Shown here in pieces: positions 12,188-58,830 of a DNA stretch of 64,000 nt (its first letter is position 1; every line of letters starts with the position of its first letter). Source of the stretch: Octopus vulgaris (lineage: Eukaryota). The notes beneath the pieces were generated by a model, which was given only the letters and a program-made list of their open reading frames with translations, searched no databases and had not been told where the DNA came from. The position numbers were made by a program, and so were the translations under genes. The stretch covers positions 100,192,001 to 100,256,000 of the forward strand of contig OX597822.1 in assembly GCA_951406725.2 (NCBI GenBank). Reading direction: 5' to 3'.

Positions 12188-13637
12188 TTTAACAAGGATT
12201 TTCAGAAATTTCCATATGGCATAGCTTGTTACTGTTTTGTCCAATGATAAACAAGACCTGTTTTACAAGAAAGAAGCATAGCCAAGTGAACAAACTTCAA
12301 TAATATCAGTGGTGCCATTTGAATGCCTACCACCAACCTAGGCTAAATAAAAGTAAAGTCTTGCTGAAACATCATTTGAACTTAGAACAGAGCGTGTGAG
12401 TGAGTGAGAACAGAACGTGTGAGTGAGTGAGTGAATGAGAGAGAGAGAAATTGGGCTATATTTCCAAGAGACTGTAAAATTGATTAAATATTTCTTTGGT
12501 TTGTTTTCCTGAGCTCATATACTACCATGTATATACTTAGATATGTTCTGTTGCTGCCAGTCGAGCATATCCTCCACTGAGGGATGTGTCTGATTATGAA
12601 AAGTTTAAAAAAAAAACCCATTGAAGGATATAGATGAGATGATTAGAACAGGTTATATCCATTGTGTGAGCTGAATATTGATTGATTGGTGATCTATTAT
12701 TCTAATTTGCCTTATATTTTGTTCTTCTTTATATAGCAACTTATGCATGCTCATGATTCCCCAACCATATCTGTGTGTGTGTGTGTGTGTTCAGCCTTAT
12801 TGGCTGAAAAATATTGCATAGCCAATAAGGAACAAATATGAAAAAAAAAAACCTTGAAGCTAATTCATTTATTATTAACAATGAAAACTCTGCAATTGAC
12901 TTTGATAAGACTAATTATCTGAAATCCTCTTAGGCTAAAGAATGAAAGGGAAGGAGAGAGAGGGGGGTGGAAATCATCAGTGAACAATGGGAAAAACGTT
13001 TTTTTTTCTCTTTTTGTGGAGGAAGGGTTTACTTTTATCAACTCTTAAAACAATTGATTATCCGAATATGGTGATAATAAAATGTAGAAAGATGGTCTAG
13101 ACGAGTATTCTTTTAGTTTTGATAACTGAGTTGCCTGCTGTGTAGTATTCGCTCTATAATAATTAATTACCTGATGGATTTGTATTGTCATAGTAATGTA
13201 ATCTTCACTAAACGAATATACTGTATGTATGTCACATGGGTTTACATGTGTAAAAATTGAAGTGCTTGATACATTGTGTTATTGTAGTGTATGCAGTGCC
13301 CCTTGTTATGTGTGTATCTGTGGAGTACTCAGCCACTTTCACGTTAATTTCACCAGTAGACTGTTCTGTTGATCGGATCGACTGGAACCCTTGTTGTTGA
13401 AACTGACAGAGTGCCAGTTGTTCTTTTATTCTTTTACTGTTTTCAGTCATTTGACTGTGGTCATGCTGGAGCACCACCTTTAGTCGAATGAATCAACCCC
13501 AGGACTTAGTCCTTGTAAAGCCTAGTACTTATTCTATTGGTCCCTTTAGCCGAATCACTAAGTTATGGGGACATAACATACCAACATCGGTTGTCAAATG
13601 ATAGTGGGGGGAGGGACAAACACAGACACACAAACAT

Positions 13638-13712
<75 letters not shown>

Positions 13713-13725
13713 ATTATATAGAAGG

Positions 13726-13776
13726 AGCTTCTACAGGACTAGAACTGTTTCATTCAAAAGAAATCATCAGGAAGCT
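13726..13776 (-). ncRNA. Type I hammerhead ribozyme motif (left arm)
   Basis: Minus strand reads AGCUUC-CUGAUGA-UUUC UUUU GAAU-GAAA-CAG UUCUAGUC CUG-UA-GAAGCU: stem I of 6 bp, intact core, short stem II, stem III, GUA cleavage triplet. Confidence 0.8.
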
Positions 13777-13997
13777 AGTAGACAAGAGTTGTTTTGGCAT
13801 TTATACATTTAGGCAGGTTTAAATGGGTGGTGGTGGGGGACTTTTTTGGGGGTAGGCATGGCGCAAAACTATCATTATTAGGGGAGTGGTCAAAGGAATC
13901 GGTGGTAAAGTAGATAAAAGAATAAATAAAAGAATAAAAGAATAAATAGAAAAATAGAGTTTTAGGTAAGTAAGGAGACTCTCACTTGTACATCTAC

Positions 13998-14031
<34 letters not shown>

Positions 14032-15485
14032 ACCCACATATTCACATATATCTATATATATACATACATACACACATGCACATACATATATATATATATA
14101 TACATACATATACATATATATATACATATATATACATATATATACACATACCCATGTACATACACACAAATACACATATACATACATATACATATATGTA
14201 TACACACTCGCACATATATATACATACGCACATATACACATGCATATACATGCACACACATACACACACATCTTTTTATTCCCTTATTTTAATTTTATTA
14301 TTACTTTTGTTTATATCTTTATTTTTATCTTGACCTCGGTCAGCCATTCTCAAGGGATGGTCTAAAGAGTCCATTTATCTATCTACTCACTGATACGAAT
14401 GCAAACACTCACTCACGCCCACACACTCACACGTACACTCATACCCATACACACACGCACGTGTTATATTCATACATACATACATCTACATACATTCACG
14501 TATATTCACATACGTACACGTACCTACTGATTCATATCTACACGCATACACATACATACCTCAATACACCCACAGAAGACTAGTCCATACATATACACTA
14601 ATAAATATATATACACATATACACACATACATACATATACATATATCTATACATATATATACATATACATATACATTCATACATATATACACATACACAC
14701 ATATATATATATGTGCGTACACATACACACACACACACGCGCATCTATATATACACATAAGTACTTATGTGTATATATAGATGCGCGTGTGTGTGTGTAT
14801 GTGTACGCACATATATATATATGTGTGTATGTGTATATATGTATGAATGTATATGTGTATGTATATGTATATATATGTATAGATATATGTATGTATGTGT
14901 ATGTATGTGTATATGTGTATATATATTTATTAGTGTATATGTATGGACTAGTCTTCTGTGGGTGTATTGAGGTATGTATGTGTATGCGTATAGATATGAA
15001 TCAGTAGGTACCTGTACGTATGTGAATATACGTGAATGTATGTAGATGTATGTATGTATGAATATAACACGTGCGTGTGTGTATGGGTATGAGTGTACGT
15101 GTGAGTGTGTGGGCGTGAGTGAGTGTTTGCATTCGTATCAGTGAGTAGATAGATAAATGGACTCTTTAGACCATCCCTTGAGAATGGCTGACCGAGGTCA
15201 AGATAAAAATAAAGATATAAACAAAAGTAATAATAAAATTAAAATAAGGGAATAAAAAGATGTGTGTGTATGTGTGTGCATGTATATGCATGTGTATATG
15301 TGCGTATGTATATATATGTGCGAGTGTGTATACATATATGTATATGTATGTATATGTGTATTTGTGTGTATGTACATGGGTATGTGTATATATATGTATA
15401 TGTATATGTATGTATATATATATATATATATATGTATGTGCATGTGTGTATGTATGTATATATATAGATATATGTGAATATATGG

Positions 15486-15527
<42 letters not shown>

Positions 15528-15748
15528 GTAGATGTACAAGTGAGAGTCTCCTTACTTACCTAAAACTCTATTTTTCTATTTATTCTTTTATTCTTTTATT
15601 TATTCTTTTATCTACTTTACCACCGATTCCTTTGACCACTCCCCTAATAATGATAGTTTTGCGCCATGCCTACCCCCAAAAAAGTCCCCCACCACCACCC
15701 ATTTAAACCTGCCTAAATGTATAAATGCCAAAACAACTCTTGTCTACT

Positions 15749-15799
15749 AGCTTCCTGATGATTTCTTTTGAATGAAACAGTTCTAGGCCTGTAGAAGCT
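15749..15799 (+). ncRNA. Type I hammerhead ribozyme motif (right arm)
   Basis: agcttc(15749-54) ctgatga(15755-61) tttc-tttt-gaat gaaa(15774-77) cag-ttctaggc-ctg ta gaagct(15794-99); predicted cleavage after 15793. Confidence 0.8.
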
Positions 15800-16530
15800 C
15801 CTTCTATATAATAAATTAATTTACTCTGCTATGTATTGAGTACCTTATTTACTGTGGTTAACCCCGACTCAACCCGGGACCTACATATATATATATATAT
15901 GATGGGCTTCTTTCAGTTTCTGTCTACCAAATTGACTCACAAGGTTTTGGTTGGCCTGAGGCTATAGCAGAAGACACTTGCCCAAGGTGCCATACAGTGG
16001 GACTGAACCCAGAACCATGTTGTTGGTAAGCAAGCTTCTTACCATAGAGCCACTGTGCCTATGTATATAGAAACAAAGTATATGTTAAATTCCAAACTAT
16101 GAGAATTCATGAAAATTTTTGCTGGTTTGTCAATAAAAATTTCTTGTACTAGATTTTTCTGATTAAGAAAGGCAAGCAAAAATCATCCATTGATGGATAC
16201 ATTTAATTAAGAAAGGTTAAAAAAAAAGGGATCATCTTATTTGTGTAAGTAGAGTATTGAACATACTTATTTAGTTTGGCTTTACTCATAATAACTAAAT
16301 TAATTTTAACATATTTAATGTAGTAGGCATCAAAACTGTGTTGAGAAGTACTAATGAGGTGAGGAAAAGACATTAGATCAGTAACTAATAAATATTATGT
16401 TAACCATTTCGGTAAGTATGGGAGAATAAATCCAGATATGTCTAAAGTTCATCTCAACCTGCCAAATTAGTGATGGGAGAATTACTAAGTTAACGTACAA
16501 TACTGTTCAGGAGTAGGTATGGAAAATTAG

Positions 16531-27699: not shown

Positions 27700-29420
27700 C
27701 ATCATCATCATCATCATCATCGTTTAACGTCCGTTCTCCATGCTAGCATGGGTTGGACGGTTCGACCGGGGATCTGGGAAGCCAGAAGGCTGCCCCAGGC
27801 TCTGGTCTTATCTGGCAATGTTTCTACAGCTGGATGCCCTTCCTAACGCCAAACACTCCGTGAGTGTAGTGGGTGCTTTTTACGTGCCACCTGCACTGGA
27901 GCCAGGCGAGGCTGGCATCTCCCACGGTCGGATTGGTGCATTTTTACGTGCCACCTGCACGGAAGCCAGTCGAGGCAGCACTGGCTTCGGCCACGATTTG
28001 AATAGTGCTTTTTACGTGCCACCGACACGGAAGCCAGTCAAGGTGGCGTTGGCATCGGCCACGATTCGGATAGTGCTTTTTACGTGCCACCGACACGGAA
28101 GCCAGTCGAGGCGGTGCTGGCATCAGCCACGATTCGGATAGTGCTTTTTACGTGCCACCGACACGGAAGCCAGTCGAGGCGGTGCTGGCATCAGCCACGA
28201 TTCGGATAGTGCTTTTTACGTGCCACCGACACAGAAGCCAGTCGAGGTGGCGCTGGCATCAGCCACGATTCGGATAGTGCTTTTTACGTGCCACCGACAC
28301 GGAAGCCAGTCAAGGCGGCGTTGGCATCGGCCACGATTCGGATAGTGCTTTTACGTGCCACCGACACGGAAGCCAGTGGAGGCGGCGCTGGCATCAGCCA
28401 CGATTCGGATAGTGCTTTTTACGTGCCACCGACACGGAAGCCAGTCAAGGTGGCGTTGGCATCGGCCACGATTCGGATAGTGCTTTTTACGTGCCACCGA
28501 CACGGAAGCCAGTCGAGCGGCGCTGGCATCAGCCACGATTCGGATAGTGCTTTTTACGTGCCACCGACACGGAAGCCAGTCGAGGCGGCGCTGGCATCAG
28601 CCACGATTCGGATAGTGCTTTTTACGTGCCACCGACACGGAAGCCAGTCGAGGCGGCGCTGGCATCAGCCACGATTCGGATAGTGCTTTTTACGTGCCAC
28701 CGACACGGAAGCCAGTGGAGGCGGTGCTGGCATCAGCCACGATTCAGATAGTGCTTTTTACGTGCCACCGACACGGAAGCCAGTCGAGGTGGCGCTGGCA
28801 TCGGCCACAATTCGGATAGTGCTTTTTACATGCCACCGACACAGAAGCCAGTCGAGGCGGCGCTGGCATCGGCCACGATTCGGATAGTGCTTTTTACGTG
28901 CCACCGACACAGAAGCCAGTCGATGCGGCGCTGGCATCGGCCACGATTCGGATAGTGCTTTTTACGTGCCACCGACACGGAAGCCAGTCGAGGCGGCGCT
29001 GACATCAGCCACGATTCGGATAGTGCTTTTTACGTGCCACCGACACGGAAGCCAGTCGAGGCGGCGCTGGCATCAGCCACGATTCGGATAGTGCTTTTTA
29101 CGTGCCACCGACACGGAAGCCAGTCGAGGCGGCGCTGGCATCGCCACAATTCGGATAGTGCTTTTTACGTGCCACCGACACAGAAGCCAGTCGAGGCGGC
29201 GCTGGCATCGGCCACAATTCAGATAGTGCTTTTTACGTGCCACCGACACGGAAGCCAGTCGAGGCGGCGCTGGCATCGGCCACAATTCAGATAGTGCTTT
29301 TTACGTGCCACCGACACGGAAGCCAGTCGAGGCGGCGCTGGCATCGGCCACAATTCAGATAGTGCTTTTTACGTGCCACTGACACGGAAGCCAGTCGAGG
29401 CGGCGCTGGCATCGGCCACA
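27700..29420 (-). mobile_element. RTE 3'-end-derived repeat carrying an amplified 68-bp array
   Basis: (CAT)n tail at ~27700-27720, family core 27721-27880, then tandem modules to 29420. Confidence 0.9.
28003..29420. repeat. GC-rich minisatellite, 68-bp unit, about 21 copies
   Basis: Unit agtgctttttacgtgccaccgacacggaagccagtcgaggcggcgctggcatc(a/g)gccacgattcggat; period 68 (e.g. 28073 to 28141); two more diverged units precede it from ~27872. Confidence 0.95.
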
Positions 29421-30921
29421 ACAACAATTACAATTGCCATTTTGTAATAATTTTGTTTCATTTCCCATTCATGATAAACCTTATCTTCATTAAAAAACAT
29501 TTTTTCTTTCATTTTTCACTCTTGTTTATGAAATTGTGGAGTTCATTGCTCCCTCTCTCTCTCCCCTTCCCTCTCCCCACTCGCTCAAAGACTTGAAGTT
29601 TTTATTTAATTCCTTCTGGGTTGTTTGTTCATGGAACACATATATTCATCGCAAATGTCCAAAAGCAAGAATTGTAAAATATTGAACTGTTATTTAATCT
29701 TATTAAATCTGTTGAAGCGTTTCACAATGTCTTCTTTAAATCATAAAAGAATAGTGGAATTGAAGAAAAAGAGATGAAAGTTAATTTTTACTCGTTGGGA
29801 ATTGCAAAATGTCAAGTGGTCATCATTTTCAAATGTGATTGGAAACATTACATTATAGTTGTGGCACAAAGAGAAATGCATCTGCACCAAATTATATTTG
29901 ATGGTTTATCATCATCATCATCATCATCCTCATCCACTTTTCCATACTCGCATGGGTTGGATGAAGTTTATTTGAGATAAATTTTCTACGGCCAGATGTC
30001 CTTTCTATGGCCAACCCTCACCTGTTTCCGACCAAGTTGGAATGTTTCTCTGTGGCCAGACATGTTCATGCTGTGTATTGGAAATAAATGATACTGCTGT
30101 TTCTATAACAGTAAGTGTCATTTATGATCATCATGCAATACCACAACAGAGAGACACAAACTCACATACACACTCACTTAGGTATACATATGTACACTCA
30201 CACACACACACACTCTCTATCTCTCTCTCTCACATACGACAGGGTTCTTCCAGTTTCTATCTAACAAATGTATCCACAAGGTTTTAGTTGGTCTGGGGCT
30301 GTAGTGAAAGACACTTACCCTATGTGCCATGTTGTGGAATTGAACCTGGAACCATGTGGTTGGTAAGCAACTTTCTTGCCGCACCTGCACCTATATCTAC
30401 ATTTTATTCATTAAACAGATTATGGTGTTTTTAATATGAGTTTAGCAATTAAAAATTTCAAGAATTCAGCATGATAAATGGATCACCAGAGTTAATACAT
30501 CATCATCATTTTAATGTTCACTTTTCCCTGCTTGATGGAGTTTGTTAAGGTGAATGTTCTATGGCCAAATTCTGTTTCTGTCACCAAACATCACCTAACT
30601 TCCAAGTAAGGTAATATTTCCGGATCTTTTCGGTTTGAACGGCAGTTTTTCTAGTGGTGTTATATGAAATTGTCACCCATAATTATGACCCTAGTATCGA
30701 TCTATTGCATTTCAATCTGTTTTAGGGTTAGGGTTAGGGGTGGGGGAAAGGGTATCTTTTTTTCTTCAGAAATGTAAATAAACCCAATCTGTTTCTTAAA
30801 CGAGAGACATATTTATACGGCACAGAATGTTTTCACTTCTATAGACGTCATTGATTGGTTGAAATTGCAGAAATTGAAGAAAAAAAACAACAAATATCTT
30901 ACAAACTATAGAATTTTCTCA

Positions 30922-45189: not shown

Positions 45190-45486
45190 CACGTAAAAGC
45201 ACCATCCGTTCGTGTCCGTTGCCAGCATCGCCTGGCCCCGTGCCGGTGACACGTAAAAGCACCATCCGTTCGTGGCCGTTTGCCAGCTCTGTCTGGCACC
45301 TGTGCAGGTGGCACGTAAAAAAGCACCCACTACACTCGTGGAGTGGTTGGCGTTAGGAAGGGCATCCAGCCGTAGAAACACTGCCAGATCTGACTGGGCC
45401 TGACGAAGCCTTCCAGCTTCACAGACCCCAGTTGACCCGTCCAACCCATGCTAGCATGGAAAGCGGACGCTAAATGATGATGATGA
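45190..45486 (+). mobile_element. RTE 3'-end-derived repeat
   Basis: cacgtaaaagcacc modules, core motif, (GAT)n tail. Confidence 0.85.
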
Positions 45487-45514
45487 TAGTTGTATGAGTG
45501 TGTACATACATACA

Positions 45515-45564
<50 letters not shown>

Positions 45565-45574
45565 TGTATACCAT

Positions 45575-46630
45575 CATTGTCATCGTTTGATGTCCACTTT
45601 TCATGCTGGCATGAGTTGGATGGTTTGACTGAAGGCTGGCAAGCCAGAAGACTGCACCAGGCTCCAATCTGATCTGGCAAAGTTTCTACAGCTGGATGCC
45701 CTTCCTAACACCAACCACTTTGAGAGTGTAGTGGGTGTGCTTTTTATGTACCACTTGCATGGGGTCCGGTCAGACAGTACTGGCATTGACCACACTTGAA
45801 TGGTGCTTTTTACGTGCCACTGGCATGGGAGCCAGTCAGGCAGCACTGGCAACGACCCTGCTTAAACGGTACATTTTACATGTCACCAGCATGGGAGCCA
45901 GTCAGGTGGCACTGGCATCGACCTTATTGAATGGTGCTTTTTATGTGCCATCAGCATAGGTGCCGATCAGGCAGTACTGGCATCGGCCACGACAATGACT
46001 TCACTTGACTCAACAGGTCTTCGCAAGCGCAGTTTATTGCCCAATGATTGAAGGGTACTTTTAAATGGGCCAGTGATGCTGCACTGGCATAGGCCACAGT
46101 TACGGTCTCACTTGGCTTGTCAGGTCTTCTCAAGTACAGCATAACTTCAAAGTCTCAGTCACTTGTCATCGCCTCTGTGAGGCCCAACGTTCAATGGTTG
46201 TGCTTCACTACCTCATTCCAGGTCTTCCTGGGTCTACCTCTTCCACAGGTTCCTTCTACTGCTAGGGTGTGACACTTTTTCACACAGCTGTCCTCATCCA
46301 TATGCAACACATGACCATACCAGTGTAGTCATCTCTCTTGCACACCACATGTGATGCTTCTTATGTCCAACTTTTCTCTGAGGGCGCTTACACTCTGTTG
46401 TGTATGCACACTGACATTACACATCCAGCAGATCATATTAGCTTCATTCCTTGCAGGTTTACACATGTCCTCAGCAGTCACGGCCCATGTTTCACTGCCA
46501 TGTAGCATGGCTGTTTGCACATGTCATACAGTCTACCTTTTCCTCTGAGCAAAAGGCCCTTTGTCACCAGCAGGTTACACTCTCAGAGCAGCAGCCCTCT
46601 CTACTGACTTGGTCACCTAGGTAATGGAAG
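45575..46630 (-). mobile_element. RTE LINE 3' fragment (ORF C-terminus plus complete 3' UTR)
   Basis: QTAMLHGSETWAVTAEDM...RNEANMICWMCNV...REKLDIRSI (46329-46520), followed by UTR modules and a GAT-like tail; links the abundant GAT-tailed repeat to RTE. Confidence 0.9.
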
Positions 46631-49047: not shown

Positions 49048-49102
49048 CTATATATAAATAATATATATATATGTTTATATACACACATGCACACAGCACA
49101 TT

Positions 49103-49392
49103 ACCAACAGTAAACAACATGAAATACGAAAACAAGAGAGTTCAATACACAAACAAAGAAAGAAACAAATGGAAAACAGCATGAGTAACATAAAGAACGA
49201 CCCTTCATCGGTTATCGCCTGTTTATCTACTCCTTATTTTGACCATTGATTGACAATATGAGTCTTTGAAAACAGATGCCCCTATAAGTAATAAGGTCAT
49301 TCTTTGTTATTTGTCCTGTTTTCCATTTGTTTCTCTCATTGTTTGCATATTGAACTCATTTGTTTTTGTATTTCATGTTGTTTACTGTTGGT
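49103..49392. repeat. Inverted repeat, ~100-bp arms, ~92-bp spacer, between microsatellites
   Basis: accaacagtaaacaacatgaaatac...aaagaacgacc (49103-49202) pairs with ggtcattcttt...gtatttcatgttgtttactgttggt (49295-49392). Confidence 0.85.
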
Positions 49393-49415
49393 GACATCCT
49401 GTACCCATATATGCA

Positions 49416-49455
<40 letters not shown>

Positions 49456-50235
49456 GCTTGCATTTGCTGCACTTGTGGCTTTAGATTGTTATTTAGCCTG
49501 CATTTGCTGCACTTGTGGCTTTAGAATTTTCCTACTTTCAAGTATGGGGCAGTGTCTAGTTTTATTGATTCTGTTAGTTCATTCTATGATAAGGCTTTTT
49601 AGAGTCTAATTGGATCTAAATGAAAGTTTTTAAGTTATTAGTAACAGTAAGGAAAATAGTGGTAGTTATAATTTCAATACAACAGTATATTCTAACCTAC
49701 CTACTCTTTGTGTAATGCTAAATGAAATGAGTTAAATGGAATAAACAGTTAAGGTGGTGGTAGTAGAGGAGGCATTGGTGGTGATGCTTGAAATGGGGAA
49801 TGATGAAAGAAAGAGAAAACGGATGGAGATTTAAGCACAAAGAGGGAGAGGAGAAGGAAAAAAAAATCAGTGTCTTTAGTTATCATTTTCTCGGTCTTTT
49901 TCTGCATTTGTTTTAAGTGCTTTAGAAATTGTACCTTTGTATATATAAGAAAAAAAAAAGAATTATTTCAGTACTAGAATGGAAAATGTATGTGTGTGCA
50001 TGGATGTCTCTCTCTCTCCATATGAAAGAGATATAGATGATGAAGGTATCAGTCTAATGTAATTCTGATACCTGTTACAATTGTTTCAGTAGCATTCCAT
50101 TTTGAACCACACCACACAGTTTTATGTGATAAATTACATAAAACTTGTGTAAAATATGCATGGTTGAAATAATGTGAAATGGCATTTTCTTCAGATGATA
50201 TATATATATATATATAAATATATACACACACACAT

Positions 50236-57625: not shown

Positions 57626-58275
57626 TATGCAATAATGGAGCAACTTACCAAGGCCACTGGAATATAACAAGGAACCTGGTGTGTCATGTTTGGGACGTGC
57701 TTTGCTTCTATGGTTTTCTCCTGTTGTTTAGTTTGCCACAAGCAAAGTCATTTTGTTTCCATTTAAAATTAGAAACATGGTACCTTGATAAACTGTGCAA
57801 CAGGAGCTTTTAATGTTATGATATACCTTCCTTACCTGTGCTTGAGAAATTGCATTTTTACGTAATATCTGATATAAATGTTGGTTGGTTGATGTATTTT
57901 AGTCATGCTTTACTCCATATAGTGAGAAAAAGGGATACAGTGAGAGTTAACATCAGAGCTGCAAGATGAGTACATACTCTAGGCTTGGTGGCAGGCAATG
58001 CTTTCATGCATACTCACAGTGAGGAAGGATCATAGATATAGGGAGGAGTATAAATATCTAATTATTAAAGTAGAGAAATTATCAGAAAAGCCATTTCTAT
58101 TCATTCTATATACTCAATGATTTAATTACAAATTTGTACATTAAATTTGCATTTATGTGACATGGGCATAATTTCATCAGAGAAAAAGATATACCTCGAG
58201 ATGTAGCCTACTGTAATTAAATTATTGATATACCTTGAGATGTAGTCTACTGTAATTATATAATATATATATATA

Positions 58276-58830
58276 CTCTTTTACTTGTTTCAGTCATTTG
58301 ACTGCGGCCATGTTGGAGCACCGCCTTTAGTCGAGCAAATCGACCCCGGGACTTATTCTTTGTAAGCCCAGTACTTATTCTATTGATCTCTTTTGCCGAA
58401 CCGCTAAGTGACGGGGACGTAAACACACCAGCATTGGTTGTCAAGCAATGCTAGAGGGACAAACACAGACACACAAACATATACATACACATACATATAT
58501 ATACATATATACGACAGGCTTCTTTCAGTTTCCGTCTACCAAATCCACTCACAAGGCATTGGTCGGCCCGAGGCTATAGCAGAAGACACTTGCCCAAGGT
58601 GCCACGCAGTGGGACTGAACCCAGAACCATGTGGTTGGTACTTACCACACAGCCACTCATATATATATATACACATACTATTTTACTTGTTTCAGTCATT
58701 TGACTGTGGCCATGCCTTTAGTCGAGCAAATTGACCCCAGGACTTATTCTATTGGTCTCTTTTGCCGAACCACTAAGTTACAGGGATGTAAACACACTAG
58801 CATCGGTTGTCAAGCGATGTTGGGGGGATA
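58276..58830 (-). mobile_element. CORE-like tRNA SINE (family A, 58276-58658) plus adjacent partial copy (58680-58830)
   Basis: ctcttttacttgtttcagtcatttgactg...cacacagccactc; the second tail begins at 58680. Confidence 0.85.

Follow-up and report, generated by a model that had tools for sequence, protein, structure and literature searches.

What kind of event leaves two copies of a ribozyme-bearing sequence joined head to head, and is such a structure real at this locus? The 64-kb stretch of Octopus vulgaris DNA analyzed here (the window) contained a palindrome of two 1,053-bp arms with a 0-nt spacer (Table 1). The arms were 96.6% identical by blastn and differed by eight substitutions and seven microsatellite gaps in a global alignment, and only the right arm carried an additional 69 nt. 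An earlier note on this DNA had correctly described the two spacerless arms, the one-sided tail and the location in a (TA)n tract. The flanks of the insert were colinear halves of one repeat family, which was also present in other copies in the window (e.g., 58274–58486 and 58507–58669), and the insert therefore sits in the (TA)n tract of that repeat, presumably a SINE. The frames open within the arms were mostly microsatellite-derived, and an ORF encoding reverse transcriptase (RT) and a GIY-YIG domain was absent from this copy.

Spacerless palindromes are a known read artefact, which counts in favour of an assembly fold-back at this locus. Against this stood the tail on a single arm at the positions typical of the family, the colinear halves of the split host repeat, this architecture at about 100 loci of the sample, and the presence of the family's junction type in an independent sequencing run (X17). 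The small arm differences quoted in the earlier note as evidence against an artefact were also real. At four differences in unique sequence, the left arm had the family state (5–116 of 129 loci) and the right-arm allele was private (0/129); private alleles confined to one arm are not expected from read fold-back. All four private substitutions of the palindrome were on the same arm and give no information on timing. The palindrome was thus confirmed as a real genomic feature, and we consider an artefact next to impossible.

Table 1. Features of the palindrome and its surroundings (window positions).
Feature	Position	Strand	Remark
Host interspersed repeat, left half	13422–13645	+	split by the insertion
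(TA)n target tract, left part	13641–13709	.	
Tail-less arm	13710–14762	−	5'-truncated 3' end of a putative Hydra-clade PLE, ending at the second 3' end (~15816 equivalent); microsatellite-rich 3' UTR, promoter-like region, hammerhead
Left-arm hammerhead motif	13726–13776	−	loop III is the family allele
TATA-box-like TATAAAT, mirror copy	13799–13805	−	
Head-to-head junction	14761–14764	.	on the native 4-nt self-complementary word GTAC
Tailed arm	14763–15884	+	same 3' UTR segment (palindromic part 14763–15815) plus tail, ending at the family's main 3' end
TATA-box-like TATAAAT	15720–15726	+	29 nt upstream of 15749
Family-wide 5' wall	15749	+	66/245 arms start there; candidate RNA 5' end (transcription start)
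Type I hammerhead motif, Hydra-PLE type	15749–15799	+	descriptor match
Stem I	15749–54/15794–99	+	
Stem II	15763–65/15770–72	+	
Stem III	15777–80/15789–92	+	
Predicted cut	after 15793	+	
Predicted 8-bp hairpin	15790–15808	+	sequesters cut site and stem I 3' strand; overlaps arm-specific indel hot spot 15792–15800
PLE tail, 68–69 nt	15816–15884	+	between both putative reverse-transcription start sites
(TA)n target tract, right part	15885–15901	.	
Host interspersed repeat, right half	15895–16070	+	

Parent element and copy number

With the last 225 bp as the query, a first look at the same genome (2.8 Gb) yielded 1,258 candidates, and the 40 that were scored were 99–100% alike. Exact-pattern counts gave lower bounds of 1,303 for the ribozyme core and 2,188 for the tail, with controls at 0, and 150 RT matches were scored (82–100%). 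The copy count that the earlier note had suggested as a check thus returned many genomic copies, among them head-to-head palindromes and copies bearing an RT/GIY-YIG ORF. Other copies ran straight through the palindrome centre into a microsatellite-rich 3' UTR of 2.2–2.6 kb and then into the ORF, and the proposal of a non-autonomous retroelement was therefore abandoned. The suspected Penelope link was upheld by the ORF itself. At one locus (L062), an intact ORF of 713 amino acids was found in a partial tandem with a unit of 4.8–5.3 kb; partial tandem (pLTR) junctions were also present at L064, L072, L074, L075 and L078. The ORF contained RWR (at 38), DKT (116), YRDD, a CxCX5C motif (CNCPDKTTC, 567), YIG, CxxC (CDLC, 667) and CxH (CMH, 695). 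The motif in its C-terminal domain was SYIG, with no cysteines within the YIG core.

The structure of the 713-aa protein was predicted with a pLDDT of 93, and the top Foldseek matches were telomerase RTs (TERT). Some homologs of the ORF carried PF01541/PF00078 and several had RWK; the 713-aa protein itself had no relevant Pfam match, and Pfam and PDB sequence searches with the ORF gave nothing useful. A dimer prediction for residues 1–480 returned no answer (score 0.00) and is evidence neither way. The single ORF with its telomerase-like RT (as judged from the predicted structure) and GIY-YIG domain, the tandems, the inverted truncated copy and the tail at one end point to an EN+ Penelope-like element (PLE). 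The RWK-like motif, DKT rather than DKG, the CxCX5C linker, CxxC/CxH, the lack of CCHH, the (TA)n targets and the 3' hammerhead point to the Hydra clade, an assignment based on motifs and on a by-eye comparison with reference proteins. The unit of 4.8–5.3 kb was outside the <3 kb that is typical of, but does not define, this clade. The arm is thus the final 1.1 kb of the 3' UTR in an autonomous PLE assigned to the Hydra clade, and the palindrome a dead-on-arrival copy. The element adds a young, high-copy member to a clade already described, and its arrangement is known as well.

Several loci showed additional rearrangements. The upstream parts of L007, L010, L013 and L028 contained a duplication inside the 3' UTR with a period of about 500 nt. 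At L043 and L074, mini-palindromes of the family were nested in or beside other repeats; the one at L074 was inside the microsatellite UTR of a full copy, which makes (TA)n tracts of the element itself targets too. Three loci (L218–L220; G000:C1:57292240, 57300323 and 57308461) had the same junction at a spacing of about 8.1 kb and are probably a tandem segmental duplication, not separate insertions. L035 and L037 had common flanks, likewise suggesting duplication. A second, distant Hydra-like ORF fragment was found at L050 (5818–7188, plus strand). It matched the endonuclease of the present element at about 31%, and a long N/S-rich segment, resembling the N-rich inserts in Penelope of A. vaga, separated its thumb from its endonuclease.

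Pairing of two distinct 3' ends

The total sample comprised 140 loci with 245 arms. The core-selected set (80 of the 81 groups into which the first 100 matches to the core fell on contig C1) was biased towards arms holding 15753–15787. The tail-selected set (60 of 65 additional loci given by the first 100 matches to the tail, 486 bp each) was free of this core bias, with distant partners falling outside the range. Tailed arms ended at 15884 in 109/126 cases. Tail-less arms ended at 15810–15824, with the mode at 15816 (58/110). A (TA)n tract was next to 123/126 tailed and 110/110 tail-less ends (233/236), in agreement with the insertion site at the window locus. Both 3' sites are TA-like in the template, which may allow base pairing to the end of a nicked (TA)n tract.

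Of the 103 head-to-head pairs, 94 combined a tailed with a tail-less arm, none had two tailed or two tail-less arms, and nine were broken or complex. Long loci also had one of each, except for L064, an apparent case of two tail-less arms that ended in non-(TA)n sequence and was probably disrupted. In the tail-selected set, 77/95 tailed arms started at or past 15749 and 65/95 adjoined an inverted arm, making a ribozyme palindrome of ~200 bp the usual product; 12/79 short tailed arms had no inverted partner inside the fetched stretch. One short direct pair (L152) was present among the 80 core-selected loci.

5' wall and junctions

The 5' starts clustered at 15749, where hammerhead stem I begins: 137/241 were at 15749–60 compared with 14 at 15706–48, and at the 60 tail-selected loci these numbers were 52/99 and 1. 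In the independent sequencing run X17, 24 contigs broke at the equivalent base into an inverted arm. TATAAAT was at a fixed spacing in 114 long arms with a variable spacer sequence, suggesting that it acts as a promoter and that the element RNA starts at 15749. A G preceded 9/17 untemplated starts at 15749 compared with 5/23 controls, a cap signature that is only suggestive (p = 0.052). The self-complementary AGCT at 15749–52 inflates the number of starts there, with 34/66 in such overlap pairs. The internal promoter of D. virilis Penelope is described as lacking a TATA box in the available part of the source (PMC2377424), and TATA/Inr-like motifs are described for the A. vaga pLTR in that of another (PMC3846280); promoter type thus varies among PLEs. 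In the available part of a published supplement (PMC8557442), the Hydra-2_Amil consensus had, by eye, a TATA-like tract about 30–38 nt upstream of stem I. A transcription start at the ribozyme may be a clade-wide layout, judging from this tract.

Of 85 adjacent joins, 46 overlapped by 1–5 nt and five by more, nine were blunt and 25 had inserted bases. Symmetric palindromes were centred on self-complementary words, namely AGCT, AGGCCT (the 8-kb L076) and GTAC (the window). The exact AGCT-centred junction was present at 364 genomic sites, and at least four haplotypes carried the AGCT join, the tail being on the left in some cases and on the right in others. L008 was independently truncated and joined at the same GTAC as the window copy; other copies read through this GTAC.

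The hammerhead motif

A type I hammerhead descriptor had exactly two matches in the window (cores at 15755, plus, and 13770, minus) and none in 200 dinucleotide-shuffled windows. The complete hammerhead that the earlier note had seen in each arm is therefore supported as a motif, with the core CUGANGA/GAAA/NUH and three predicted stems. The Infernal/Rfam search that it had recommended detected no hammerhead at either threshold: there were 0 hits in the whole window at the gathering threshold, and none of the 104 hits in 13300–16100 at E ≤ 10 was a hammerhead. The microRNA hits were dismissed as microsatellite noise. Subfamily variation across the 245 arms was limited to N7 and loop II of the hammerhead, as would be expected under selection, and no compensatory changes were available.

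The unconstrained fold of the ribozyme region was no better than that of shuffles (z −0.65 and −1.14). In folding predictions, stem I had a probability of about 0.99 if the RNA ended at 15800 and of 0.00–0.11 with downstream sequence. Folding of the ribozyme upon an RNA start at 15749 was considered and rejected; stem I stayed at about 0.1 because the downstream hairpin is predicted to out-compete it. Mapping of the element ends to the ribozyme cut was rejected as well, with 2/241 5' starts at 15790–98 and 3' ends near 15796–98 in few arms. The ribozyme likely sets neither element end and, by analogy with the anole element discussed below and from the folding models, is likely mostly off or protein-assisted. 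The idea of a hairpin transcript ending in a self-cleaving motif also fared poorly: by geometry, the sense ribozyme would pair with the antisense copy in the other arm, and even alone its stem I is predicted to lose to the local hairpin. Indels at 15792–15800 were present in 21/222 arms, compared with 0–7 arms in 9-nt windows at other positions, where T- and A-runs had the highest counts; either the hairpin or nicking of the ribozyme may underlie this hot spot.

Origin of the inverted arms

The palindrome represents a single insertion, in which two 3' ends of the element, each truncated on its 5' side, lie head to head. We propose, with moderate confidence, that it formed by twin priming on one RNA whose start is at the ribozyme. 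The proposal builds on the established family and its ORF, the two fixed 3' ends with one of each per insertion, the (TA)n targets and the microhomology joins. The TATA promoter of an upstream pLTR would start the RNA at 15749, resulting in a terminally redundant RNA with the ribozyme first. Both ends of the cut (TA)n tract would then prime reverse transcription on this one RNA, one of them at 15884, where the tail ends, and the other some 68 nt further upstream, at ~15816. Priming at the first pLTR–ORF junction would give run-off cDNAs of 136 and 68 nt and thereby palindromes of ~200 bp, and priming at a downstream junction would give randomly truncated arms of kilobase length, like the window copy. 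Tail-primed synthesis would usually displace the other cDNA and sometimes stop there. The cDNA 3' ends would finally anneal via matches of 1–6 nt (AGCT, AGGCCT, or GTAC in the window), followed by fill-in. The weak cap signature, the inflation of starts at 15749 by AGCT, the 12/79 short tailed arms with no partner in the stretch covered, and the TA-like nature of both putative priming sites, unlike the homology-free priming reported for the anole protein, count against this proposal.

Comparison of the two arms bears on whether they had one template. The three-site subfamily haplotype was identical between arms in 63/66 pairs (the three misses were two alignment gaps and one substitution), a concordance that fits one RNA molecule and two RNAs of one active locus alike. 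Long partner arms of one insertion differed at 0–7 of 164 sites, with medians of 5–18 to other copies. Double priming on two RNAs from the same active locus, one per site, for example by a protein dimer, would account for the one-of-each rule, for the arm-specific lesions described below, for either arm being the longer one, and, if one locus is active per cell, for the concordant haplotypes. It would also make strand displacement unnecessary where both arms are very long, as at L076 with about 4 kb per arm. It requires, however, an extra rule forcing a different start site on each side; mixed TTT/TAT pairs were absent (0/66) although both haplotypes are common; and in 7/94 pairs, including the complex L163, the tailed arm stopped at 15810–15845, near the second site, which fits one template better. 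We consider two RNAs unlikely.

The earlier note had proposed insertion as a fold-back. In this reading, one cDNA or antisense RNA would fold at a short palindrome and be copied back, stopping before the tail. The haplotypes common to both arms and the self-complementary words at the centres of symmetric cases (GTAC, AGCT, AGGCCT) are in line with such self-priming, for which the available part of Arkhipova et al. 2013 (PMC3846280) provides a precedent. A copied arm cannot, however, pass its template arm in the 5' direction, yet the tail-less arm reached >10 nt further 5' in 15/87 short pairs (the tailed arm in 7/87) and was longer by kilobases at L039, L044, L065–L067 and L079. Nor could the tail be copied from a tail-less cDNA. 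Lesions at 15792–15800 were never identical in both arms, and L111 and L180 carried different lesions in each arm. For asymmetric pairs, fold-back is thereby largely ruled out; it could still apply to symmetric pairs only, and is improbable overall. A further alternative attributes the wall at 15749 to stopping of the RT, or to processing of the RNA, at the ribozyme, with the minis spreading from master copies as a non-autonomous retrozyme-like family. The coincidence of the wall with the first base of stem I, the single junction common to 364 sites and the borderline cap-G result would suit it. The RT would meet the helix from its 3' side (15799), though, and not on leaving it; the predicted cut site lacked a pile-up of starts; the junctions were diverse, including AGCT joins on several haplotypes in both orientations; and the TATA spacing was fixed. 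We regard this alternative as very improbable.

Beyond this family, PLEs may integrate by obligate twin priming, with one RT start site for each end of a double-strand cut and, as the common template, one terminally redundant RNA that begins with the first base of the hammerhead; we put this forward tentatively, as a close call on the doubtful side. If true, one rule would explain why there is a tail, why the pLTR is inverted and why tandems are needed, and the commonest product would be a 'strong-stop' ribozyme palindrome of ~200 bp, present in thousands in the genome. Our literature search, which covered few subscription journals, found neither a paper that invokes twin priming for PLEs nor a description of this octopus family.

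Comparison with known systems

In L1 twin priming, as Ostertag and Kazazian reportedly described it in 2001, the second DNA end primes on the RNA and a head-to-head join with microhomology results. There the process is said to be occasional, with variable internal sites and arms that do not overlap, whereas here two-armed insertion is the rule, the second site is fixed and the arms usually duplicate each other. The pairs in which the tailed arm stopped near the second site resemble the products of L1 twin priming.

The octopus element resembles the Hydra-clade PLEs in the available sections of Craig et al. 2021 (PMC8557442) in its C-terminal GIY-YIG domain, RW(K/R), DKT, CxCX5C linker, and CxxC and CxH around E and N. 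It also shares their (TA)n targets, the 3' hammerhead with its ctgatgat...tgaa core and acag/ctgt stem III, and the combination of an inverted copy, truncated at its 5' end, with a one-sided tail. Compared by eye with Hydra-1_Obim of Octopus bimaculoides, as given there, protein and ribozyme differed, indicating a different family. The units in those sections are <3 kb and the tails 30–40 nt, whereas our unit is 4.8–5.3 kb, owing to the microsatellite-filled 3' UTR of 2.2–2.6 kb, and the tail 68–69 nt. The abundance of tails (at least 2,188), mostly in ~200-bp palindromes, is a further difference from the elements in these sections.

According to the available text of Frangieh et al. 2024 (PMC11167929), the anole Poseidon protein PAc cuts both strands in vitro and starts reverse transcription at two sites bounding the tail. 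The two internal start sites bounding the tail and the AT-rich target are similar here, and we count as likenesses the cutting of both strands, the dispensability of hammerhead cleavage and the lack of ends at the cut site. In that text the two sites are not tied to the two insertion ends or to an inverted copy, and priming is homology-free, whereas both sites here are TA-like, which would permit pairing with the target. Animal non-LTR retrozymes (bioRxiv 10.64898/2026.07.22.740005) are, in the portion available, likewise short non-coding type I hammerhead units from PLE pLTRs, but form head-to-tail tandems thought to involve circular RNA. The units here are head to head, each apparently built at insertion, and the arm is continuous with an ORF in other copies; by sequence, neither a head-to-tail tandem nor the lack of a coding partner in cis, which characterize retrozymes, applies. 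The inverted pLTRs of Adineta vaga Penelope (PMC3846280) share, in the part available, junction palindromes, an optional tail and TATA/Inr-like motifs; self-priming on an antisense template is proposed there, and our pair statistics argue against it.

The structure itself is textbook PLE, and the added value lies in a testable mechanism drawn from base-level statistics. The origin of the inverted copy and the one-sided tail and the role of the hammerhead are posed as questions in the available parts of PMC8557442 and PMC11167929, and the family statistics favour twin priming over the published self-priming model. The intact ORF is usable for biochemistry; no Hydra-clade assay was found in the literature searched. 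If transcribed within introns, about two thousand perfect hairpins may be a source of dsRNA.

The window contained other repeats. A tandem array at 27872–29421 had a unit of about 68 bp (93–94% alike), and two older inverted pairs of interspersed repeats, with about 75% identity, were located at 45232–45835 and 49048–49456.
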